In this document: one piece after another, positions 54-36,723 of the stretch
Position numbering within the stretch: position 1 is the first letter of the stretch
Layout: each line of letters begins with the position of its first letter
Assembly: GCA_018824365.1 (NCBI GenBank)
Contig: JAHJGQ010000100.1
Location: 1 to 39,466 of the forward strand
Length of the DNA: 39,466 nucleotides
Source of the DNA: Nanobdellota archaeon
Lineage (GTDB): Archaea > Nanobdellota > Nanobdellia > Woesearchaeales > GW2011-AR9
Reading direction: 5' to 3'
Translations under genes and position numbers: made by a program
The notes under the pieces: model-generated
Databases searched by the model: none
The model's input: the letters and a program-made list of their open reading frames with translations, nothing else
Told to the model about the DNA's origin: nothing

Positions 54-1316
54 CTAAAAAATAATAACCTCCTTTATTTTCTTTACTCTTTCTTTAACAT
101 AATCGTCTCTTATCAAGTTCTTCATGAAATCTTCCAATTTAGGGTTTTTATTCTTTATCTTGGCATAGATCTTACCATTTTCTTGGAAAGCATCTTTATT
201 CTTTTTCTTAAAATCTTTAACGAACTCTTTCATCTTTAGAGGCGGACCTGCCCTTAGCTCAAACTTAGGCAGCTCTTTTTTCGCTAATAAAAAAAACATG
301 ATCGCTTCATTTTCTTCTTTGTTCTCTTTCCATCTCCATCCAGATCTTTTGATATCAAATTGCGTGAGTTTCCTTTCCAGATGATTGAAGACTTTTAACA
401 ATTTACTTCCTACAACATCCTCCTTGCCTTTTAGGGCATCTAACTGTAAAAAGACAATGTTCTGTTTTTTTTGCTCTGCTTCTCTATTTAATTTATCTAA
501 ATTGATAATCTCTTTTTGAAATAAATTTTTGCTGGGTTTCTTCAAGTATTCCTTAGCAAGTTTCCTGAACAGTAAGTATTTTTCATTTGAAAGGGCGGCA
601 GCGGCGTTCCTGTTTTTGTCAACCGGATCTACAATAATTATCGGTGATTGAAGTTTTGAATTATTGATATGAAATAAAGCGGTCTTTTTTGTATAAAATT
701 TAGACGGATCAACTATTTCTTTATTACCCCATTTTTGTGATGCTTTCAAAAGAGCTTCAAAAGAACCATAATTGATGGTTAGTATCTCTAATACATAACC
801 GCTGAAACCGCTGATGTATGATTCTGCTCCATAAAGATTGTTGGCTTTACAGAATTGTTTAATCAGTCTGATCTCATTTTTTATCTTTTTATCATGTTTA
901 TTGACCCATCTAGAATGAAGAGGAGAGATGTCGGTGATATTGATGGCTTGTTCAGCTTTGTTAATCTTTAAAATGGGAACAATTTCCAAATTAAAGTTCT
1001 GATAAGTTGTTTTGAAATAGTCTCTGCTTCCATGAACTTTCTCTATCTTGATTTTAGGAAAAACTTTCTTTAATATTGGTTCAAGAATTTCTGATAATTG
1101 ATCGGATTTAGCTGAATATCTCTTATAATCGAATAAGACAAAAATATCAATGTCGTGATCCCCCGATAGCCATGTGCCTTTAGCACCACTGCCACCCAAA
1201 ATAGCTTCTGCATATTTAAGCTTGGAGTTCAATTTTTTGATGAATAATGAAGTGATTGATTTTACTTTGTCTGATTCTTTTTTACTCGGTTTTATTATTT
1301 CTAATATGTCTTTCAT
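54..1316 (-). CDS. cca: CCA-adding enzyme (archaeal class I tRNA nucleotidyltransferase)
   Basis: 420-aa ORF. The N-terminal GGSGAKGTWLSGDHDIDIFV matches the class I nucleotidyltransferase G-S/D-x-D signature. Length and layout are typical of archaeal Cca. Confidence 0.85.
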   Translation of the reverse strand: MKDILEIIKPSKKESDKVKSITSLFIKKLNSKLKYAEAILGGSGAKGTWLSGDHDIDIFVLFDYKRYSAKSDQLSEILEPILKKVFPKIKIEKVHGSRDYFKTTYQNFNLEIVPILKINKAEQAINITDISPLHSRWVNKHDKKIKNEIRLIKQFCKANNLYGAESYISGFSGYVLEILTINYGSFEALLKASQKWGNKEIVDPSKFYTKKTALFHINNSKLQSPIIIVDPVDKNRNAAAALSNEKYLLFRKLAKEYLKKPSKNLFQKEIINLDKLNREAEQKKQNIVFLQLDALKGKEDVVGSKLLKVFNHLERKLTQFDIKRSGWRWKENKEENEAIMFFLLAKKELPKFELRAGPPLKMKEFVKDFKKKNKDAFQENGKIYAKIKNKNPKLEDFMKNLIRDDYVKERVKKIKEVIIF

Positions 1317-8154: not shown

Positions 8155-8282
8155 GCAAAGAAAAGCAGAAAGAGACAGTCTTTAGACCGGTTATGTCCAC
8201 AGAAAAACAACGATTTTTCTGGGATGCCAAAAAAGTAGTTTCTTTTTTGTGCGAATGCTCTTTCATATCCTGCTTTTCTTGC
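8155..8282. ncRNA. Candidate structured element (13-bp closing stem with internal hairpins)
   Basis: 8155-8168 pairs with 8270-8282 (13 bp, one bulge). Internal perfect hairpins lie at 8169-8183, 8199-8221 and 8229-8247. Confidence 0.3.
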
Positions 8283-8287
8283 GTCAC

Positions 8288-8319
8288 AAAGTGCGGAGTG
8301 AGATTCTTTTCCGCACTTT
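8288..8319. terminator. 10-bp GC-containing hairpin just downstream of the cmk stop codon
   Basis: AAAGTGCGGA (8288-8297) pairs with TCCGCACTTT (8310-8319), with flanking T/A runs. Confidence 0.3.
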
Positions 8320-8340
8320 TATGACAGCTTAAAAGAAAAA

Positions 8341-8925
8341 TTAATTTTTCTTTTCTTGTTTTAAATTGATGTATTTCATAGCTTTATCAGTAGCTTGCTC
8401 TGCAGTTATGTTGGTCGTGTCAAGAACGAAATCATATTGCGATTCATCTCTATGGTCAAAACCGTAATATTTCTTATAACGGGCAGCATCTTCTTCTTCA
8501 CGTTCAATGATCCTTTTCTTAGTCTGCTCAAAAGAAGTGATCTTTCCTTCATTTCTTTTTTCTTTTGTCTGTTTATTTTGTAGATCTTTCCAGATCCTTT
8601 TGGCTCCCTCTTCAAAATCAACCTTAATGTAAATCTTAAGTGATTCTGGCAAAAAGTGAAATTGTGTTCTTCCTTCAACAATGATTATCTGGTTATTCTT
8701 TTCCAGTTCTCTGGCTTCTGCAGAGGCTTTCTTATCAACGTCAACGTCAGTCTCAGGATGAGTCTTAGCATATTCATTCAACTCTTCTAAAGTCATGCCT
8801 TTATCTCTGGCTAATTCTCTCCTGATGCCTCCAACGTAAATTCTCTTAGCGTTTAATTTTTCTACAAGAATCTTAGATACTGTTGATTTTCCAGATCCTG
8901 GTGTTCCTGAAACTGTGATTATCAT
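8341..8925 (-). CDS. cmk: Archaeal-type cytidylate kinase / P-loop NMP kinase
   Basis: 194-aa ORF with P-loop GTPGSGKST at the N-terminus and NMP-kinase size. The subfamily assignment is from memory. Confidence 0.6.
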   Translation of the reverse strand: MIITVSGTPGSGKSTVSKILVEKLNAKRIYVGGIRRELARDKGMTLEELNEYAKTHPETDVDVDKKASAEARELEKNNQIIIVEGRTQFHFLPESLKIYIKVDFEEGAKRIWKDLQNKQTKEKRNEGKITSFEQTKKRIIEREEEDAARYKKYYGFDHRDESQYDFVLDTTNITAEQATDKAMKYINLKQEKKN

Positions 8926-8935
8926 CTTTAAGTTC

Positions 8936-9637
8936 TTACCTCACTTTTTCATAATCGCTTTTCTTCAAATCTCCTAAATAATTATTCATCCATTGTTTGA
9001 TCCAGAAAATTGTTGCTTTTGTCAAACCCCACTTCTTGAATCTTCTCATTGATGTTGTTACATTGGTGTCAATGCATTTAAACTTTTTTCCTGTTTTATT
9101 TTTAAGTTCAATTATTAACTTGCGATGCTCTTTAACGATAATCTCTGGATTGTAGCCTTTAACATTATTAAAATCTTCTTTGCGGCAGATCAAAGCGCCG
9201 CTGCAACCATTATAGATATTTGTAGAGTTGTAAAGATTCTTGAACTTCATCGCTAATCTGTATTTTAAATTATCAGAATCAGGAAGAACTTTAGTTGTAG
9301 CGACTGAATATTCTGATGAGAACTGTTCATTGATCTTTTGCAGCGAATCATCCTCTAAAGTTGTGTCGGCATCTAAAAAGAGAAAAATTTCTCCTTGCGC
9401 CTCAAAAGCTCCCGAATTTCTGGCAATACACACGTTAGCTTTAGATAAAGAGAGATGTTTAGTTTTATCATTTAATCTTTTTTTAACAATTTCTTCTGTT
9501 TTATCAGTACAGCCGTTAGTAACAACTATTGTTTCATAGTTTTGATAAGTTTGATTTTTTATACTATGTAATGTTTTTTTAATATACTCTTCTTCATTAT
9601 GAGCGGGAATTATGATTGAGAATTTTGGAGGCATCAC
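8936..9637 (-). CDS. Family 2 glycosyltransferase
   Basis: FSIIIPAHNEEEYI start and a DxD motif in LFLDADT. Confidence 0.8.
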   Translation of the reverse strand: MMPPKFSIIIPAHNEEEYIKKTLHSIKNQTYQNYETIVVTNGCTDKTEEIVKKRLNDKTKHLSLSKANVCIARNSGAFEAQGEIFLFLDADTTLEDDSLQKINEQFSSEYSVATTKVLPDSDNLKYRLAMKFKNLYNSTNIYNGCSGALICRKEDFNNVKGYNPEIIVKEHRKLIIELKNKTGKKFKCIDTNVTTSMRRFKKWGLTKATIFWIKQWMNNYLGDLKKSDYEKVR

Positions 9638-9800
9638 AGTTTGAAGAAAGAAATTTATTTTAAAGAATTACTATATTGGAAAATATATGTTGAAGTTGTG
9701 GTGAAGTGTTATTAAAGCGCTTTTTTTATGGTTTGATTTTTTATAGTTCAGCCAAATAAATCCATAAATTTTTATAAAATCGTATTTTTTTTTCTTAATC

Positions 9801-10118
9801 ATGGAAACAATAAGAATCGAAAAGAAAGTCTGGCCGGAATATTTCCAGAAAATAATCGACGAAAAGAAGACTTATGAATTAAGGCTTGCTGATTGGGTAT
9901 GTAAAGAAGGAGATTTGTTGGTCCTTAAAGAATGGAATCCAAAAACGAAAGAATTTACCGGAAGAGTTGTTGAGAAAGAAGTGACTTACGTCGGTAAAAC
10001 AAAACACATGAATTTTTGGTCAAAGGAAGATGTGGAAAAGTATGGTTTTCAGGTAATATCGTTTAAATCAAATAAGCAGAAATCTCCTGGATTAATCCTT
10101 GGAGATGAATGCTATTAA
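9801..10118 (+). CDS. DUF3850 / ASCH-like PUA-fold protein
   Basis: WPEYFQKIIDEKKTYELRLADW...GDLLVLKEW...FTGR...VTYV matches the remembered DUF3850 pattern. Confidence 0.6.
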   Translation: METIRIEKKVWPEYFQKIIDEKKTYELRLADWVCKEGDLLVLKEWNPKTKEFTGRVVEKEVTYVGKTKHMNFWSKEDVEKYGFQVISFKSNKQKSPGLILGDECY

Positions 10119-10301: not shown

Positions 10302-11384
10302 TTACAAAGTCAGATAATTAGCTGCCCATAACATCCCAGAATCGCAATAATAAAAAGGTGTGCTGAAAGGTTTACCTGCTGCTGAGAAGACTTCTAAAAA
10401 GTTTTTATGTTTCTCAATCAGTTCTTTATATTTCTCTTTATATTTTCTGGATCTATTTTCATCAACTTGCTGTAATAACTTTACATATAATGGACCCATG
10501 TGCATCCAGATAGCATTGCTTTCATAATCTCTAAAAAATAATTCCTGCCAGATGAAATTTATGTTTTCTCTTGAATTAGAGTATTTTAATGGAAAAGGTT
10601 CGTCCAGTTCAGCTTCATGCAGATGAGCAATTGCTGAATGAAGCATTTTTTTATCTTCAACAACACCAAAGATGAAAGGAAAAAAGTTTGCATCTCCTGT
10701 AATGTAATCTTTTTTTGTTAAGTCATCGTAAAAGTAAGCACCATTCCAAAAATGACGTTTGATGATGTCTGGATAATTAAATCCTTTGAAAGGATTGATT
10801 AGTTTCATCTCTTCAAGATCTTTAGCAAGCAAGGCAACCATGCAGTTATCATAACAAGAACTTTTTCTGACAGCAAAATCTTTCATCGAAGAAACGTGTA
10901 AATCTGGTTTGACTAAACCTGTATGTTCGTTAATGAATGTCTTAAAGAATTTTTTAGTTTCCTGATTAAGAAAATTTTTATGTGAATGATGAGGAAATTT
11001 TGATATTTTGATGCTATGGATTAACCAAGGCAGAGAATCAACAGCAGGCAAAGGAAAATCAAAAGGCTTACCTTTGGGAGTAATAGTTGTAGTTATCTTT
11101 TTATATTCCTTAAAACGATTTATTGCATACCTTAAAGTTTGATGTACTTCTTTCTCGTACTTAAGTGTCAGGAGAGATTTAGTACACCATCCAAAATCTC
11201 TTGTCCAAAATTGAGGAAAGTTTGTTGTAGACGTTTGAAAGAATCTATCATTCCAGCAGTCTTTAACTATTTGTTTGCAGATGGTTTCTGCATTGCCTTC
11301 GTATTTTTTCGGTGAGATGCGGTTTTTCCAGCTGGTTAGAAAGATGCGGGTTCCTTGTGTCAGATAATCAAGAATTGAGACCAT
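10302..11384 (-). CDS. Hypothetical protein, possibly an (alpha/alpha)6-barrel glycoside-hydrolase-like enzyme
   Basis: 360-aa ORF. FWTRDFGW resembles debranching-enzyme and trehalase-type motifs. The product call is weak. Confidence 0.45.
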   Translation of the reverse strand: MVSILDYLTQGTRIFLTSWKNRISPKKYEGNAETICKQIVKDCWNDRFFQTSTTNFPQFWTRDFGWCTKSLLTLKYEKEVHQTLRYAINRFKEYKKITTTITPKGKPFDFPLPAVDSLPWLIHSIKISKFPHHSHKNFLNQETKKFFKTFINEHTGLVKPDLHVSSMKDFAVRKSSCYDNCMVALLAKDLEEMKLINPFKGFNYPDIIKRHFWNGAYFYDDLTKKDYITGDANFFPFIFGVVEDKKMLHSAIAHLHEAELDEPFPLKYSNSRENINFIWQELFFRDYESNAIWMHMGPLYVKLLQQVDENRSRKYKEKYKELIEKHKNFLEVFSAAGKPFSTPFYYCDSGMLWAANYLTL

Positions 11385-11571
11385 AAATGTATGATGTAAG
11401 AGGTAATATAAAAATTTGTTGGAAAACGAATGTAATTGTGTTTAATATTTTAAAAAAAATATGAATCTCCCAAGATTACTCATCCTCAGCCTACTTCGAT
11501 CATTCCATTAAGGAATATTCAAGAGTTCTTCATCGGATCTTGAGACTTGGGAAGGAACGGACCCGGGGAGA

Positions 11572-11648
11572 CTTCCAAGGAATTGGTTACGAATAGCTAG
11601 CTATGAGTTACTTAAAACCCATGACTCCAAACCCAAAACCAATTATCT
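11572..11648 (-). other. tRNA-Arg intron 3 (77 nt, T-loop, position 59/60)
   Basis: Central helix UUCA:UGGA stacked on the T stem, bulges AAA and AGU, and an internal 6-bp helix AAUUGG/CCAAUU. The junction is ambiguous by about 1 nt. Confidence 0.6.
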
Positions 11649-11670
11649 TTTGAACTCCCGGTCTTTTGCT

Positions 11671-11687
11671 CTCTTCTCTTTTTAGAG
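11671..11687 (-). other. tRNA-Arg intron 2 (17 nt, canonical position 37/38)
   Basis: RNA sense CUCUAAAAAGAGAAGAG. The anticodon loop CUCC pairs with the intron GAAG, and bulges lie on both sides. Confidence 0.65.
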
Positions 11688-11706
11688 TAGGAGGCAAACG
11701 CCCTAT

Positions 11707-11725
11707 TTGTCTTCCTTTACAGGAA
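11707..11725 (-). other. tRNA-Arg intron 1 (19 nt, D-loop, position 19/20)
   Basis: RNA sense UUCCUGUAAAGGAAGACAA. Bulge-helix-bulge motif: central helix GCCU:AGAC (one C.A mismatch), 3-nt bulges GGU and AAA, and a 4-bp helix with a GUAA loop. Confidence 0.7.
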
Positions 11726-11769
11726 CCAGGCTAGGCTACGGGTCCTTAAAGCTTAAGTTTGATGAATTC

Positions 11770-11778
11770 TTTAATAAG
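11770..11778 (-). promoter_or_regulatory. Candidate TATA box for tRNA-Arg
   Basis: The minus strand reads CTTATTAAA, 25-33 nt upstream of tRNA position 1. Confidence 0.35.
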
Positions 11779-16988: not shown

Positions 16989-17990
16989 ATGTACATCCTT
17001 AAACAACTTCCTGAAGATTTTATCGTAAAAGAAATAAGTAATGTAGAAATAAAAGATAAAGGTAAATATTTCTATTACAAATTAAAGAAAACTAATCGTA
17101 ATACTTTAGATGTTGTTAAAGAAATCGCTAAACAATTGAATGTTAAAGAAAAACAAGTAGGTTTTGCCGGCAGCAAGGACAAGCATGCAGTTACAGAACA
17201 ATTGATATCGGCACCAAAAAAGCTAGATAAGATAAATATTGATAAAGTCTCTTTAGAATTTCTTGGTTATGGAAATAAACCTATTTCTTTAGGTGATCTG
17301 GAAGAGAATGAATTTGAGATCGTTGTCAGACATTTAGAAAATTTTTCTATTGACAAAATTAATCTTGTAGAAAATTATTTTGATGAACAGAGGTTTTCTC
17401 TTCATAATGTTGATATCGGCAGGCATCTGATAAAAAAAGAGTTTGAAGATGCAGTAAAACTTATTGATGACAGCAGAGCAAATGAACATCTGAAGAAACG
17501 TAAGAATGATTTTATCGGTGCCTTAAAGAATCTGCCGATAAGATTGCTAAGGATGTACGTAAACGCTTACCAAAGTTATCTTTGGAATGAAACTTTGGCA
17601 GGTCACTTAAGAAAGAAGGGAAAGGTTCTCAAAGAAGTTGAATACTCATTAGGAAAAATAGTTTTTGTTTCTGATGCAGAAAAATTTGTAGATTTAGAAA
17701 TTCCTTTGATAGGTTTTGGTTGTGAAAGTTTGGATAATTTTAAAGATATAATAAAGAAAATTATGGAAAAAGAAAATCTTGATTATCCCGATTTTGTCAT
17801 TAAACAGATTCCAGAACTTTCTTTAGAAGGAGATTTAAGAAAGGCATTTGTAAAAATAAATAATCTGAAAATCAGTAAAGAAACAAATGATGATTTCAAT
17901 AAAGATAAAAAGAAACTTACAGTTAAATTTTCTTTAGGGAAAGGAAGTTATGCTACCATGGTTGTAAGAAGGATGATATCTTTAGAATAA
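16989..17990 (+). CDS. truD: tRNA pseudouridine(13) synthase TruD
   Basis: Catalytic motif GFAGSKDKHAVTEQ and typical archaeal TruD length. Confidence 0.85.
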   Translation: MYILKQLPEDFIVKEISNVEIKDKGKYFYYKLKKTNRNTLDVVKEIAKQLNVKEKQVGFAGSKDKHAVTEQLISAPKKLDKINIDKVSLEFLGYGNKPISLGDLEENEFEIVVRHLENFSIDKINLVENYFDEQRFSLHNVDIGRHLIKKEFEDAVKLIDDSRANEHLKKRKNDFIGALKNLPIRLLRMYVNAYQSYLWNETLAGHLRKKGKVLKEVEYSLGKIVFVSDAEKFVDLEIPLIGFGCESLDNFKDIIKKIMEKENLDYPDFVIKQIPELSLEGDLRKAFVKINNLKISKETNDDFNKDKKKLTVKFSLGKGSYATMVVRRMISLE

Positions 17991-18156: not shown

Positions 18157-19311
18157 ATGACTGAAAAAAATTCTCATTCCAATAAAGATGAAAATTGGCT
18201 TGAAGAAAGAAAAAAACTCTTAGAATCTCTTCAGAAATTTCAGGAAGTAGCTTTCAAACAGTATCAGCATATCAATTATCTGCAACAAATCGTTGATGAA
18301 CAAAAAGCTTTATTGGAAAAATATGAACAAGGTGTTGAAGATCTTGTTGAGAACGATTTAAATCTTGAAGTAGAAGATGTAACTTTTTCTGATATTGGCG
18401 GTTTAGGTGATGTAATCCAAAAAATTCAGCATTTTCAGTATGGGATTCTCTTTCCGCAAATGTATAAATCTTTTGCTATCAAGCCGCCTAAAGGCTTGTT
18501 GATGCATGGTCCTCCAGGTTGTGGCAAAACGATGATTGCCAAAGCCATGGCTAACGAGATTGATTCATTCTTCATGGAAATACCCATGACTAAGATCATC
18601 AGCAAATATGTTGGAGAAGCAGAAAGGACTCTTGACGAATTGTTGTTACATGCACGGAACACTCACAATGAGTATGGAAAGAAAGTGATCGTTTTCGTTG
18701 ACGAAGCCGAACAGATGTTCAGGAAAAGAGGTTCATATGACCATGGTGTTAATGATAGAATAGTTAATGTCTGGTTAAGGACCATGGACGGCATGTCCGA
18801 ATCAGATGGTTTAATCTTTGTTGCCGCTACAAATCATCTTGAGATGATGGATGATGCAATAACCAGAGCAGGAAGGTTTGATTATGTTGTTGAAATTCCT
18901 AAGCCGGATAAAAAAGGCATAGAAGATATTTTAAGAAAACAAGTTGCATATACAGAAAAGAAAGCTAATCGTACTATCTATCAGATTGATGATTATGGAC
19001 GTCTGGCAGAAATGCTTTATCAGAGAAAAGTCACTGGTGCGGACATTAAAGAAGTTCTTCGTATTACTTCTGAAAGGTTGATCGCTGAATTTATTGAGAG
19101 TGACGATTCGCTTGTTGTTGGTCTTCCTGCAACTTATATTTATCAGAGCCAATTGGAAAAGACCCTTTACTCTTATGGAAAAATAAAACATGAGAAGAAA
19201 ATTGGTTTTAATGTTAAATCTGATGAGGATGATTCTGGCAATTTTGAAGATTTTGTTGATCGCAGTTATCTTGAAAGACAAAAAAGAAAAAATCATCATG
19301 GGGATGGATAG
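18157..19311 (+). CDS. Classical-clade AAA+ ATPase with a coiled-coil N-terminus
   Basis: Walker A GPPGCGKT, Walker B VFVDEAE and SRH AATNHLEMMDDAITRAGRFD. About 70 aa of heptad-rich N-terminus, with no OB domain and no HbYX tail. Confidence 0.85.
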   Translation: MTEKNSHSNKDENWLEERKKLLESLQKFQEVAFKQYQHINYLQQIVDEQKALLEKYEQGVEDLVENDLNLEVEDVTFSDIGGLGDVIQKIQHFQYGILFPQMYKSFAIKPPKGLLMHGPPGCGKTMIAKAMANEIDSFFMEIPMTKIISKYVGEAERTLDELLLHARNTHNEYGKKVIVFVDEAEQMFRKRGSYDHGVNDRIVNVWLRTMDGMSESDGLIFVAATNHLEMMDDAITRAGRFDYVVEIPKPDKKGIEDILRKQVAYTEKKANRTIYQIDDYGRLAEMLYQRKVTGADIKEVLRITSERLIAEFIESDDSLVVGLPATYIYQSQLEKTLYSYGKIKHEKKIGFNVKSDEDDSGNFEDFVDRSYLERQKRKNHHGDG

Positions 19312-24023: not shown

Positions 24024-24467
24024 ATGGAAAAAAGTTTTGCATATTTTAGATATCATATGAAAACATTTAAACTTAAAGATTTTGAGAGATTACTTAAGAA
24101 ATGTGATTTTGATTATTTTAAAAAGAAAAATTTTGTAGATATCGATTTGAATAATGAGGAAACAAAAAATAAGATCATTAAGATATATGAAGATCTTTCA
24201 AATTTTGAAGGTATACGGTATGTGGGGGCTACTAAAGTTATGCACTTAATATGTCCATATGTTTTTGTAATGTGGGATGTTGCAATAATAGAAGGATACA
24301 AAAAAGAGACTTTAAGAGGATACATTAATACAAGACCAGAAGGATATTATAATTTTATGCGAGAGATGCAAAAAAGATATAAAGAAAAGAAATTTAAAGA
24401 TTTAAAAAGAAATGTACTGGTTCCCCGTGCAATCGACCTCCATAATTGGGATAAGTTCTCTACTTAA
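24024..24467 (+). CDS. Hypothetical protein
   Basis: 147-aa ORF. It may extend upstream through a frameshift at an A6 run (see findings). Confidence 0.5.
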   Translation: MEKSFAYFRYHMKTFKLKDFERLLKKCDFDYFKKKNFVDIDLNNEETKNKIIKIYEDLSNFEGIRYVGATKVMHLICPYVFVMWDVAIIEGYKKETLRGYINTRPEGYYNFMREMQKRYKEKKFKDLKRNVLVPRAIDLHNWDKFST

Positions 24468-25887
24468 CTATTTTCCCCAATTCCTTCACAATCCAAACCA
24501 TCGCTTCTGTATCTAACTTACAATACTTCAACAAATCTTTTCTTACATCCTCACCATCAGCATAGATCATGCTCAGATAAGATAATGCTGCAGTATCTCC
24601 ATCAGCGATTTTTAGTTTAGAATAATCTTTTTCTGTAATAGCAGGCAATACATCTTTAATCGAAGCTGAACCGTGCTGTTCAGAATTGTAGTAATAAAAG
24701 TTTTTGAAAGGAAACCACAAATCCACTACTCTGTCAATTACTTCTGAAACCCATTTCTTATAATCGGGATAAGCATCAGCCAACTCTTTCAATCTAGAAA
24801 TTTCAAAAGATTGGTTATAGACAATGATAGAACCGGATGAACCTAAAACAGTTCTTAATTCAACCAAAAACTTTTCTCTAGGATCACTATTATCATTGGC
24901 TAAAAATTCAAAATGCTTTCCATCAATATGCAAGCTGAACTGAAAGGGAATTTGCTGGTATGGTTTTGTTCCATCAAGTATGGGAATAGCAGTTCTGAAT
25001 GTTTCAAAATCTAGGTAATAAACTGGTTTTTGAATACCTTCTAAGAATTTCTTTAACTTCTCTTTATCTACATGAACTTTTCCAGTTTTCTCACATTTAT
25101 GCTGTATGCCCTGTTTGTCGGTTAATTTGTATTCATGTGGAATATCTTTCAAAGCCAAAATACCTTCTTCAAGAAGTTTAAAACATTTCTGTCCTCCTCT
25201 ATAAAGATCAAATATTGAAGCAGAAGGTAAAAATCCCCAACAGTCATCTTCTAATGGACAATCATAAGGATCAGAACAATCTTTACTTATCTTGACATCA
25301 GGACAGGTTTCACTCTTCATCACATTAAGCAGATTATTTATCCTCTCCTCAATGCCAACAATAGCTTCATTAACTTCTTCAGTAATGTCTTCTTTAGTGA
25401 AGAATTTTTTAGGATCAATCTCTCCACTCTTGACAAACTCATTATTAACATGCATTAAAAAACATTTTCTAATATTCAATCCAGCCAAAGAGTAAACATG
25501 TTTCTGAAAACTTACATCCTGAATATTAACATCTTTGACTTTTGTACCGCTCTTAACCTCAATTATATCCCATTTACTTCCTGCTGGTACAAGTATGTCT
25601 GCCCTGGAGTAAAGATTACCAACCATAAAGGCAGCTTCAAATAAAGGCTTACCTAATTTTACAAATTCTTTAGACTTTGCAATGTTCTTTTTGAAATCCG
25701 CTTCAGGGATATCAATTCCATCTGGAAATAATCCTTTTGCAAGCTGGCCTACAATATGTCCCTGATCAAACTTGTGTTGAGTAGATAAATCAGGTTCAGG
25801 AATCCTATCTTCTTCATGTAATGATACCCAGAAGTATTTAGGACATTGTAATCCTACAAGGTACTTAGATTTAGTTAAGAGTGTCAT
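24460..25887 (-). CDS. DUF2779-type protein (Cas4-like PD-(D/E)xK nuclease fused to a DEDD-like exonuclease domain)
   Basis: N-terminal LTKSKYLVGLQCPKYFW, the nuclease motif WDIIEVKSGTK, the Cys cluster CPDVKISKDCSDPYDCPLEDDC, and YYLDFETF. Confidence 0.75.
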   Translation of the reverse strand: MTLLTKSKYLVGLQCPKYFWVSLHEEDRIPEPDLSTQHKFDQGHIVGQLAKGLFPDGIDIPEADFKKNIAKSKEFVKLGKPLFEAAFMVGNLYSRADILVPAGSKWDIIEVKSGTKVKDVNIQDVSFQKHVYSLAGLNIRKCFLMHVNNEFVKSGEIDPKKFFTKEDITEEVNEAIVGIEERINNLLNVMKSETCPDVKISKDCSDPYDCPLEDDCWGFLPSASIFDLYRGGQKCFKLLEEGILALKDIPHEYKLTDKQGIQHKCEKTGKVHVDKEKLKKFLEGIQKPVYYLDFETFRTAIPILDGTKPYQQIPFQFSLHIDGKHFEFLANDNSDPREKFLVELRTVLGSSGSIIVYNQSFEISRLKELADAYPDYKKWVSEVIDRVVDLWFPFKNFYYYNSEQHGSASIKDVLPAITEKDYSKLKIADGDTAALSYLSMIYADGEDVRKDLLKYCKLDTEAMVWIVKELGKIVK

Positions 25888-26264: not shown

Positions 26265-27104
26265 ATGAAAATTATCCTGAGTAGAAAAGGGTTTGATTGT
26301 GAAAATGGGGGTTATGCTAGCCCGGTTCTTCCCAATGGAAAGCTAATATCTCTACCGATTCCATCAAGTGATGTAATAAAATATTCTGATTTAAAATTAG
26401 ATGACAACAAATCCTATTTTGATTTAATGAAAGAATTAAAACCAAAAATAAAATATAACAAAGAATGGTGCGAATTAACCAAAGAAACAAAATGTCATTT
26501 AGATCCTGATATTTATGTAGATATTCTAAAAAGAGATAGAGATTGGAAAGCTTCTTTTGGACAAATTAACCAATCACAATCACATTTACTAAATGAAGGA
26601 GTTAGAGAAGGAGATCTATTTTTGTTTTTTGGTTGGTTTAGACAGACTATCTTAAATAATGGTAAATTATGTTTTGATAAATCTGCTCCTGATTTACACA
26701 TACTTTTTGGATATCTTCAGATAGGAAAGATAATCCAAGTCAATAATAAAACCAAAATCCCAAAATGGATGAAATTTCATCCGCATGCAGTAGATGAAGA
26801 TAGAATAAAAACTTCTACAAATACAATCTATGTTACAAGAAAGAATTTAACATGGGATGAAGGATTATCTGGAGCAGGAATTTTTAGATTTAATAAAGAA
26901 TTAGTATTGACAAAAGAAGGTCTTTCCCGTTCAAAATGGGGCTTGCCAGATTTTTTTAAACAAGTGAAAATAAGTTATCATTCTGAAAAATCATGGAAGC
27001 CAGAAGGATATTTTAAATCAGTAGATAAAGGTCAAGAGTTCGTGATTGAAAATAATGAAGATGTTGAGAATTGGGCTAAATCAATAATAAAAAACAATAG
27101 TTAA
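26265..27104 (+). CDS. Hypothetical protein resembling the Nmad3 (nucleotide-modification-associated) family
   Basis: The N-terminal MKIILSRKGFDCENGGYASPVLPNGKLISLPIP matches my memory of the family signature. This is unverified. Confidence 0.45.
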   Translation: MKIILSRKGFDCENGGYASPVLPNGKLISLPIPSSDVIKYSDLKLDDNKSYFDLMKELKPKIKYNKEWCELTKETKCHLDPDIYVDILKRDRDWKASFGQINQSQSHLLNEGVREGDLFLFFGWFRQTILNNGKLCFDKSAPDLHILFGYLQIGKIIQVNNKTKIPKWMKFHPHAVDEDRIKTSTNTIYVTRKNLTWDEGLSGAGIFRFNKELVLTKEGLSRSKWGLPDFFKQVKISYHSEKSWKPEGYFKSVDKGQEFVIENNEDVENWAKSIIKNNS

Positions 27105-36528: not shown

Positions 36529-36537
36529 TTTTTAAAA
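36529..36537 (+). promoter_or_regulatory. Candidate TATA box for tRNA-Thr
   Basis: TTTTTAAAA lies 25-33 nt upstream of tRNA position 1, with a purine-rich stretch just upstream. Confidence 0.35.
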
Positions 36538-36580
36538 CAAGCCGATTTTTTGTGAATCAGTGCCCCTGTGGCCTAGTGGT

Positions 36581-36599
36581 AAGGTCTACACCTCACTAA
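36581..36599 (+). other. tRNA-Thr intron 1 (19 nt, D-loop, position 20/21)
   Basis: AAGGTCTACACCTCACTAA. Central helix AGTG:CACT, bulges GTA and AAA, helix AGGT/ACCT with loop CTAC, flanked by the D stem. Confidence 0.75.
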
Positions 36600-36607
36600 A
36601 TGGCGTT

Positions 36608-36626
36608 AAGACAAAAGTCTCGCTAA
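36608..36626 (+). other. tRNA-Thr intron 2 (19 nt, anticodon stem, position 28/29)
   Basis: AAGACAAAAGTCTCGCTAA. Central helix GGCG:CGCT, bulges TTA and AAA, helix AGAC/GTCT with loop AAAA. Splicing rebuilds TTACC. Confidence 0.75.
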
Positions 36627-36657
36627 ACCTTGGTAAGGTAAAGGTCCCGAGTTCAAA

Positions 36658-36703
36658 TGCAGTCACTAGCGTTCGGTATTTTCCTTCGCTATGGCTCGGA
36701 AAG
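36658..36703 (+). other. tRNA-Thr intron 3 (46 nt, T-loop, position 59/60)
   Basis: The T stem CCGAG/CTCGG flanks a 3-4-bp central helix (TTC:GAA) and bulges AAT and AGT. The junction is ambiguous by 1 nt. Confidence 0.6.
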
Positions 36704-36717
36704 TCTCGGCAGGGGCT

Positions 36718-36723
36718 TTTTTT
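36718..36723 (+). terminator. Oligo-T tract after tRNA-Thr
   Basis: A run of T directly follows the discriminator base. Confidence 0.4.

Follow-up and report, generated by a model that had tools for sequence, protein, structure and literature searches.

Two interrupted tRNA genes in the window

The window, i.e. the whole stretch of DNA that was analysed, comprises 39,466 nucleotides (nt) of a Nanobdellota archaeon (contig JAHJGQ010000100.1 of assembly GCA_018824365.1) with a G+C content of 32.8%. Two tRNA genes were found in it, for tRNA-Thr(GGU) on the plus strand and for tRNA-Arg(CCU) on the minus strand, each interrupted by three segments that are interpreted here as introns of the bulge-helix-bulge (BHB) type. 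Four of these segments, 17–19 nt long, are called mini-introns below. The proteins encoded in the window are archaeal (class-I CCA-adding enzyme, FtsZ, Spt5, NurA and TruD), and its aspartyl-tRNA synthetase (AspRS), the gene of which lies 1.9 kb from tRNA-Arg, is 67–81% identical to AspRS of metagenome-assembled genomes (MAGs) labelled Woesearchaeota, Nanoarchaeota or Nanoarchaeia. The window is approximately identical to contig JBDRBV010000055.1 of assembly GCA_043822325.1 in the overlap examined, the tRNA-Thr/NurA region, where the two NurA products agree exactly and no difference between the tRNA-Thr genes is seen by eye. The source genome is assigned to the Woesearchaeota (DPANN).

No tRNA was detected in the raw window by ARAGORN, or by Rfam at the gathering thresholds or at E ≤ 1. 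After in-silico excision of the six segments, ARAGORN returned full cloverleafs for a tRNA-Thr(ggt) of 72 nt and a tRNA-Arg(cct) of 75 nt. The features of the two genes are listed below; mini-introns are written 5′ to 3′ as third bulge nt, inner hairpin, intron strand of the central helix and two bulge nt.

36562..36717 (+): tRNA-Thr(GGU) gene with three introns; precursor of 156 nt, mature tRNA of 72 nt; cloverleaf after splicing, in agreement with the solver
36581..36599 (+): Thr-i1, 19 nt, at 20/21 in the D-loop; A AGGU-CUAC-ACCU CACU AA
36600..36607 (+): micro-exon AUGGCGUU, 8 nt, tRNA positions 21–28, between the two Thr mini-introns
36608..36626 (+): Thr-i2, 19 nt, at 28/29 in the 5′ strand of the anticodon stem; A AGAC-AAAA-GUCU CGCU AA
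36658..36703 (+): Thr-i3, 46 nt, at 59/60 in the T-loop; long insert
11558..11745 (−): tRNA-Arg(CCU) gene with three introns; precursor of 188 nt, mature tRNA of 75 nt; cloverleaf after splicing, in agreement with the solver
11707..11725 (−): Arg-i1, 19 nt, at 19/20 in the D-loop; U UCCU-GUAA-AGGA AGAC AA
11671..11687 (−): Arg-i2, 17 nt, at the canonical 37/38 site; C UCU-AAAA-AGA GAAG AG
11572..11648 (−): Arg-i3, 77 nt, at 59/60 in the T-loop; its interior folds as a long hairpin

The boundaries were examined with an independent solver, which is anchored on the acceptor stem, U8, A14 and the T-arm, tries all BHB-compatible excision combinations with at least 3/4 central pairs, and keeps those that give a cloverleaf. 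The coordinates and sequences given in the first-pass annotation for the four mini-introns were exact. For both genes the top solution of the solver coincided with the boundaries of that annotation, and it assigned the introns to positions 20/21, 28/29 and 59/60 in tRNA-Thr and 19/20, 37/38 and 59/60 in tRNA-Arg. When applied to real DNA, the solver gave 63 anchor candidates and 50 solved genes, compared with 3 candidates and no cloverleaf in 2.6 Mb of dinucleotide-shuffled DNA. These results demonstrated that the introns are far beyond chance and are real features.

All six introns could be drawn on a common plan. The last six nt of an intron would comprise the 3′ strand of a 4-base-pair (bp) central helix, formed with exon nt −6 to −3, plus two bulge nt; a hairpin of 3–4 bp within the intron would be the inner helix; and the outer helix, where it exists, would be supplied by the D, anticodon or T stem of the tRNA. 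The register of two 3-nt bulges and a 4-bp central helix fitted all six introns in relaxed forms, and the strict hBHBh′ motif was found in none. The central helix of Thr-i1 (AGUG/CACU) has four Watson-Crick pairs, its inner helix has 4 bp, and the D-stem, following a U·U, serves as its outer helix. Thr-i2 has a central helix (GGCG/CGCU) of one G·U and three Watson-Crick pairs and an inner helix of 4 bp, and the outer helix is absent beside the 3′ bulge, as in the relaxed HBh′ type. Three of the four central pairs form in Arg-i1 (GCCU/AGAC, with a C·A mismatch), which has an inner helix of 4 bp and an outer helix of 4 bp in a register one off the D-stem, and likewise in Arg-i2 (CUCC/GAAG, with a C34·A mismatch), which has an inner helix of 3 bp and uses the anticodon stem as outer helix. 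The inner helix is thus 3–4 bp in all four mini-introns, and their inner hairpins fold alone as drawn. Of the two long introns, both with a weak inner helix and the T-stem as outer helix (5 bp in Thr-i3), Thr-i3 has a central helix (UUCA/GGAA) with 3/4 pairs and Arg-i3 one (UUCA/UGGA) with 4/4 pairs, including one G·U.

The first-pass annotation had described the central tetramer as pairing with the exon in every case. This was found to be so for Thr-i1 and Thr-i2 in full, but Arg-i1 and Arg-i2 carry one C·A mismatch each. Its other readings of the geometry were confirmed: an AAA downstream bulge (AA↓A, the arrow marking the splice site) in three of the four mini-introns, shared ends of the two Thr mini-introns, and both long inserts at 59/60 with ends GGAA(A)G. 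Self-splicing group I or group II introns were considered and rejected, the segments being 17–77 nt long with zero Rfam matches at the loci even at E ≤ 1. A 9-nt repeat, UGGUAAGGU, was observed at the 5′ junction of Thr-i1 and in the anticodon arm, with a chance probability of about 0.05 within the gene; it could be a hint of an origin by local duplication.

The following signals were read from the sequence around the two genes.

36529..36537 (+): TATA-like box TTTTTAAAA at −33 to −25 of tRNA-Thr
11770..11777 (−): TATA-like box TTATTAAA at −32 to −25 of tRNA-Arg
36718..36723 (+): T-run right after tRNA-Thr, candidate terminator

By comparison with archaeal promoter architecture, the two TATA-like boxes are predicted to be promoters. 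The one of tRNA-Thr comes after a purine-rich GAAAAG, which resembles a transcription factor B recognition element (BRE), and the T-run is probably the terminator of tRNA-Thr. The discriminator of tRNA-Thr is U73. CCA is encoded by neither interrupted tRNA, and a gene for the CCA-adding enzyme is present in the window (54–1316), as are two more genes connected with tRNA maturation, for TruD (16989–17990) and for an Nmad3 nucleotide-modification-associated protein (26265–27104). A weak match to sR17, an archaeal box C/D family, was observed at 25269–25324 on the minus strand (21.3 bits and E = 0.82, short of the gathering score). The match falls within the open reading frame (ORF) at 24460–25887 and is probably due to chance.

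Orthologous genes and introns in relatives

Stretches from relatives, labelled L001–L092 (L001–L080 total 1.18 Mb), were compared with the two loci. Intron boundaries of the orthologues were obtained by spliced alignment and refined by BHB scoring; L044, L009 and the third intron of L046, which were unsolved or doubtful, were left out of the conclusions. The resulting catalogue holds 49 solved genes with 81 introns, one intron being present in 21 genes, two in 12 and three in 12. The introns of the relatives range from 11 to 125 nt. By length, the catalogue contains 7 introns of 10–14 nt, 3 of 15–16 nt, 17 of 17–19 nt, 5 of 20–24 nt, 16 of 25–39 nt, 19 of 40–59 nt, 8 of 60–89 nt and 6 of 90–130 nt. 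The 17–19 nt class is a mode of a continuous range and not a discrete type.

It was found that approximately 23 orthologues of tRNA-Arg(CCU) adjoin the AspRS gene in relatives. Their introns occupy the same three sites, all combinations being represented, from uninterrupted genes to genes with three introns, and the introns vary in length at each site (16–47 nt at 19/20, 12–103 nt at 37/38 and 19–125 nt at 59/60). Exon and intron strands of the central helix covary at 19/20 (GCCU/AGGC versus GACU/AGUC) and at 59/60 (UUCA/UGAA versus UUCG/CGAA); the intron strand at 37/38 changes along with the anticodon. The 3′ end of Arg-i2, GAAG plus two nt with a C34·A mismatch, recurs in L020, L023, L028, L032 and L035. 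The 25 introns at 59/60 in the catalogue commonly share the central strand UGAA (13/25) and an AG↓U bulge (16/25). Over the whole catalogue, 0.90 of the central-helix cells were paired, compared with 0.56 when introns were permuted among genes, a comparison that is biased by the pairing demanded by the solver.

Syntenic orthologues of tRNA-Thr were located upstream of NurA homologues. An identical gene is present in L081 and L083, and a metagenome scan for tRNA-Thr(GGU) yielded the identical copy in L081 and one relative, L082. In the gene of L082 the intron at 20/21 is 18 nt long and the one at 28/29 is 19 nt long, and the T-loop intron is absent. Its Thr-i1 shows a compensatory change in the central helix (AGUG/CACU to AGCG/CGCU), and its Thr-i2 has two double compensatory changes in the inner helix (AGAC/GUCU to GAAC/GUUC). 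This pair of mini-introns at 20/21 and 28/29 was found only in the window strain and L082. Other syntenic tRNA-Thr(GGU) genes, upstream of NurA homologues, were as follows; in L089 and L091 no tRNA was found upstream of the NurA homologue.

L087: introns at 20/21 (35 nt), 37/38 (18 nt) and 53/54 (19 nt)
L088: introns at 37/38 (31 nt) and 59/60 (35 nt)
L090: intron at 37/38 (38 nt) only
L092: introns at 37/38 (38 nt) and 59/60 (34 nt)
L003 and L007: intron at 37/38 (47 nt) only
L069: no intron

Several further observations were made around these genes. The 19-nt mini-intron of L087 (gene at 9407–9550) lies at 53/54, the junction of T-stem and T-loop (ACUCUUAAUUGAGCGGAAA), and the 35-nt D-loop intron of the same gene has a poor BHB with 3/4 central pairs and a 2-bp inner helix. 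About 50 nt downstream of this gene, at 9599–9613, there is a second tRNA-Thr 3′ end (UCGGCAGGGGCUU); a direct repeat of this sort would be expected where a mobile element has integrated at a tRNA gene. It is followed at 9671–9760 by a tRNA that has an acceptor stem like that of tRNA-Thr and 18 nt of intron at 37/38. All plausible ways of splicing it give the anticodon AGU, with an A34 that is unusual among archaeal tRNAs. In three relatives, the spacer from tRNA-Thr to the NurA gene contains a conserved non-coding element of about 150–170 nt (CAUUGCUUAUCUCAUUAGGUAUAGCUUAGC ... GGGCCCGGGAGGAUA ... GAGAUAAGCAAC; L088 9700–9850, L090 2350–2490 and L087 about 9810–9950), which is absent from the 60-nt spacer of the window. 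A search of L088 against Rfam at E ≤ 0.1 gave zero matches, including at this element. The tRNA-Thr(GGU) of L011 (about 18660–18790, plus strand) is normal through the T-arm, after which no 3′ acceptor strand could be recognised; possible reasons are an intron at about 65/66 and a gene that is split or truncated.

An ARAGORN intron search on L001–L080 found only 29 tRNAs in 1.18 Mb, 21 of them with an intron. The BHB-aware solver added many multi-intron genes to these, which indicated that standard annotation under-counts tRNAs in these MAGs.

A box C/D-like element in the tRNA-Arg trailer

The 3′ trailer of tRNA-Arg was found to contain a further BHB, which encloses a box C/D-like RNA element.

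11477..11538 (−): box C/D-like RNA element, 62 nt, in the 3′ trailer of tRNA-Arg within its own BHB; starts 19 nt past the tRNA 3′ end
11469..11551 (−): outer helix of the trailer BHB, CCCAAG (11546–11551) with CUUGGG (11469–11474), from the fold and a manual reading of the BHB
11452..11459 (−): run of eight T after the element, the first T-run downstream of tRNA-Arg

In the minimum-free-energy fold, UUCCCAAG is paired with CUUGGGAG, which gives the outer helix. The central helix is made of CUCA (11541–11544) and UGAG (11479–11482), AG↓A and UA↓A form the bulges, and UCC pairs with GGA in the inner helix. Because the first T-run lies beyond the element, it is likely that tRNA-Arg and the element are co-transcribed, and the run of eight T is the probable terminator of the co-transcript.

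The element is collinear with the 61–70-nt introns at 37/38 of tRNA-Arg(CCU) in L035, L039, L046, L052, L043 and L054, and its homology to the 37/38 introns of relatives was supported by nhmmer (E = 7.5e-12). Across 13 homologues a C box UGAnGA and a D box C[U/G]GA (CUGA in the window) are invariant or nearly so, and they stand beside the terminal stem. The closing stem covaries (UCC/GGA, CCC/GGG, UCU/AGA and UUAGC/GCUAA), and a covarying internal hairpin, UCCC/GGGA, was found at the expected position of C′/D′. The trailer element gave no Rfam match at E ≤ 1. Guide targets were sought by eye in tRNA-Arg and none was convincing; the apparent complementarity to tRNA-Arg proved to be the closing stem of the intron itself, and this candidate target was dropped. 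A box C/D RNA inside the intron of pre-tRNA-Trp has reportedly been described for Euryarchaeota by Clouet-d'Orval et al. in 2001 in Nucleic Acids Research. The element of the relatives resembles that arrangement in residing within a BHB intron at 37/38, but of tRNA-Arg(CCU); the element of the window differs from it in lying outside the intron, in the 3′ trailer within a separate BHB, in its indistinct internal C′/D′ boxes, and in lacking an Rfam match.

Location of the element was found to go along with the length of the 37/38 intron. Relatives with a short 37/38 intron (14–28 nt) carry the element in the trailer (L008, L020, L023, L024, L032, L053 and probably L028); in these the central helix CUCA/UGAG is fully paired, with a compensatory CUCG/CGAG in L053. 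A trailer copy is absent from the relatives that have the element inside the intron. The ends of Arg-i2 (CUCU-AAAA-AGAGAAGAG) equal those of the L046 intron (CUCUC...AGAGAAGCA) minus the cargo, the common part being CUCU...AGAGAAG, which suggests that Arg-i2 may be the empty form of a cargo-bearing 37/38 intron.

It may be, though we rate this slightly below an even chance, that BHB cassettes in Woesearchaeota act as movable packaging for small RNAs, the element being placed either in the 37/38 loop or 13–70 nt downstream in the trailer, at a look-alike target (CUCA-AG↓ versus CUCC-UA↓). If so, Arg-i2-like mini-introns would be spliceable stubs left in the tRNA, or landing pads, rather than a mobile family; the relocation of a BHB intron would have been caught in the act, and EndA would process an RNA outside the body of a tRNA, rRNA or mRNA.

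Judged from sequence comparison, intron mobility in this lineage is visible in introns other than the four mini-introns. An intron of about 90 nt at 59/60 with a long internal hairpin was observed, in nearly the same sequence, in tRNA-Arg(CCU), tRNA-Asp(GUC) and tRNA-Lys(UUU) of L041 (minus strand, reverse-complement offsets 8160–8346, 11312–11476 and 11482–11656) and in tRNA-Arg of L016 (reverse-complement offsets 8836–9036). The intron of L041 represents a real multi-tRNA intron family. Rfam searches of L088, L041 and L016 gave no match, including at this intron. A kinship of Thr-i3 with this family was considered and is not claimed, the similarity being weak (score 15, z 4.7). The 37/38 introns of tRNA-Met(CAU) in L023, L028 and L045 (42–51 nt) are related to one another (z 6–9) and contain motifs resembling C/D boxes (UGAGCGAUGAG ... 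CGAUGAC ... CUGAG); the lineage may thus have a second box C/D-like RNA that is carried by introns.

Origin, splicing and meaning of the mini-introns

Restoration of cloverleafs upon excision, agreement of the blind solver, the BHB geometry, the folding of the hairpins and the compensatory changes in orthologues together indicated that the BHB introns are genuine. The explanation that we favour, with a probability of about 0.82, is that these are BHB pre-tRNA introns of which the mini-introns are the short mode with a minimal hairpin. Introns at a given site would be inherited vertically, while their sequence and length turn over fast. The plan shared by the mini-introns is then simply what defines any BHB intron whose inner hairpin is minimal.

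The first-pass annotation had instead seen in the common length and layout a single intron type that had spread by duplication or transposition. This claim was not supported, since the similarity between sites was at the level of shuffled sequences and the layout was not enriched. A scan of tRNA genes for the 1+4+4+4+4+2 layout gave 27 hits in 7.0 kb (3.9 per kb), compared with a background of 3.9 per kb (P = 0.55); 6 of the 27 hits, in the window and the loci of relatives, were real introns. With at least 3/4 exon pairs required, the layout occurred 344 times in the window and 339 ± 20 times in shuffled versions. As the rates inside and outside tRNA genes are equal, the layout is not a family signature when judged by the refuting condition that the first-pass annotation itself had set, and because the 19-nt unit has no conserved sequence and its pairing recurs about 4 times per kb in any DNA, a covariance model of it would be nearly free of information.

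Some points weigh against the explanation that we favour. The pairing statistics of the catalogue are biased, as the solver requires at least 3/4 central pairs. The central helix has a C·A mismatch in two of the four mini-introns and an A·G in Thr-i3, Thr-i2 has no outer helix, and cleavage would depend on a presumed tolerance of the enzyme. The 17–19 nt class forms a bump in the length distribution (17/81), partly through non-independent orthologues, and it could reflect more than a limit of minimal size. As for Arg-i2, a mini-intron of this type could equally have received the insertion at a later time, instead of being the emptied form.

The best surviving alternative, possible but on balance doubtful, is that only the two Thr mini-introns are paralogous, by local duplication or re-insertion within tRNA-Thr, and that the Arg mini-introns are unrelated. 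The Thr pair occurs in the window strain and L082 only, and eight other tRNA-Thr(GGU) genes have no intron at 28/29, most of them having one at 37/38. The two introns have in common A as the third bulge nt, the two outermost inner-helix pairs (A-U and G-C) and the 3′ end CUC(A/G)CUAA, and they sit at similar targets (AGYG-GU↓ and GGCG-UU↓), the strand CGCU being capable of pairing with AGCG as well as GGCG. However, 11 of their 19 positions are common and only 5 of 12 in the hairpin (P = 0.28); the remaining identity arises from the central strand, which the exon imposes, and from A-rich bulges, so that the similarity was not significant after removal of the constrained positions. Thr-i1 may also predate Thr-i2, because in L087 the 20/21 site is occupied (35 nt) and the 28/29 site is empty. 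Moreover, the pair is present in just two independent genomes.

That all four mini-introns are copies of one 17–19-nt type, spread to four positions in two tRNAs, is considered unlikely. Intron spread is real in the lineage, as the ~90-nt intron shared by L041 and L016 shows (z 20–39), the box C/D-like BHB element occupies two different locations among genomes, and transposition of BHB introns has been proposed for Thermoproteales (Fujishima et al. 2010, as summarised in PMC4033280 and PMC4090602). In addition, the Thr mini-introns, with their common AAG...CUC[A/G]CUAA, co-occur only in the window strain and its relative L082, and Thr-i2 of the window shares AAGA...CUCGCUAA with the first intron of L082 (shuffle P = 0.004), CGCU being able to pair with both AGCG and GGCG targets. 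Against this, local scores between the sites of the four mini-introns were 4–7, values reached by a fraction of 0.05–0.65 of shuffles, with 2–5 of 12 hairpin positions identical. Thr and Arg mini-introns are no more alike than shuffled sequences (P = 0.05–0.65), and a lone 7-nt match, AAGACAA, stands in different structural registers. Even within tRNA-Thr the hairpins agree no better than stated above, and CGCU and CACU are imposed by the exons, just as pairing to the T-loop UUCR dictates the GGAA(A)G with which the long introns end. The mini-introns of the window matched best with their own orthologues in L082, and orthologues of Arg-i1 and Arg-i2 vary in length at fixed sites, pointing to vertical descent with length change. 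Sequences of 19 nt offer low power, and so the one-family model is unsupported rather than disproved.

It is very improbable that the loci are decaying tRNA pseudogenes with random unspliced insertions: standard tools do see no tRNA at either locus, but the exons are intact, the cloverleafs made from them are perfect and retain every conserved nucleotide, every insertion is BHB-compatible, genes and introns are conserved across genomes with compensatory changes, signals resembling promoters and terminators are in place, and most tRNA genes of the relatives are likewise interrupted.

For the vertically inherited BHB introns that we favour, a splicing route can be proposed. EndA would cut both 3-nt bulges and an RtcB-type ligase would join the exons. 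The segment G23–C25 of the micro-exon is required both by the outer helix of Thr-i1 and by the central helix of Thr-i2, so the full motifs of the two introns cannot coexist. They would probably form and be spliced sequentially, which would prevent release of the micro-exon. The first-pass annotation had stated that the window does not encode the splicing endonuclease, and this was borne out: no endA domain was found by Pfam in the approximately 40 ORFs of the window, and tblastn with a Methanocaldococcus jannaschii EndA query found none in the window or in 1.2 Mb of the relatives' loci. The idea that such sites imply an endonuclease of relaxed specificity also seems sound; as none of the six motifs is a strict hBHBh′, a tolerant enzyme is a reasonable requirement, and the six introns are presumably spliced by a tolerant EndA and RtcB of the host. 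DPANN lineages, including one Woesearchaeota genome, have been reported to possess an α4-type EndA with an L3 insert, in association with many disrupted multi-intron tRNA genes (PMC5829648), and the ε2 EndA of ARMAN-2 has a specificity-broadening insert that was linked to disrupted tRNA genes of DPANN (Fujishima et al. 2011, PMC3239211). In the survey of Kaneta et al. (2018), incomplete DPANN tRNA sets pointed to undetected disrupted genes (PMC5829648). That survey fits a tolerant enzyme, and the phenomenon is thus already on record.

Compared with known systems, the genes of the window resemble those of Thermoproteales in having up to three BHB introns per tRNA, at D-loop, anticodon-stem, T-loop and 37/38 sites and with relaxed motifs; positions 20/21, 29/30, 53/54 and 59/60 and three-intron tRNAs have been documented (PMC4090602). 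The near-identical introns in different tRNAs of L041 are likewise reminiscent of transposition in that group. In contrast, the host is an AT-rich (33% GC) DPANN archaeon and not a thermophilic crenarchaeon, the expected enzyme is α4 with an L3 insert instead of (αβ)2 with a crenarchaeal loop, and the four mini-introns form no sequence cluster, which is the defining evidence of the transposition model. The DPANN survey of Kaneta et al. (2018) concerns the same superphylum and also found many multi-intron tRNAs (PMC5829648), and the present genes, missed by ARAGORN and Rfam, escape detection in the way noted there; it gives counts per genome, whereas the present comparison describes specific sites, an 8-nt micro-exon, orthologues and a trailer element. 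Ectopic introns of nucleomorphs and Cyanidioschyzon merolae are similar in being short, in lying in D and T arms and in occurring several per tRNA; they are eukaryotic, some of 3 nt and often without a BHB, unlike here, where the proteins are archaeal and every intron has a BHB (PMC4090602, PMC3728597).

The features of the window therefore belong to a known kind, the multi-intron tRNAs of DPANN surveyed in 2018, and the claim of a new family of mobile mini-introns does not hold. Two essential tRNAs were missed by both ARAGORN and Rfam, each being cut into four pieces, one of which is 8 nt long. Such genes, invisible to standard tools, show why DPANN genomes look short of tRNAs, and curation that takes introns into account must precede any conclusion that these organisms have lost tRNAs or depend on a host. 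The orthologue series, with zero to three introns of 11–125 nt, is a compact natural data set on gain, loss and shrinkage of BHB introns, and the motifs show the minimal substrate that a DPANN endonuclease must accept, one whose central helix may contain C·A and whose outer helix may be lacking. The most interesting by-product is the box C/D-like BHB element, with its alternation between intron and trailer; this alternation, if borne out by RNA data, would make the mechanism of BHB-intron mobility testable.

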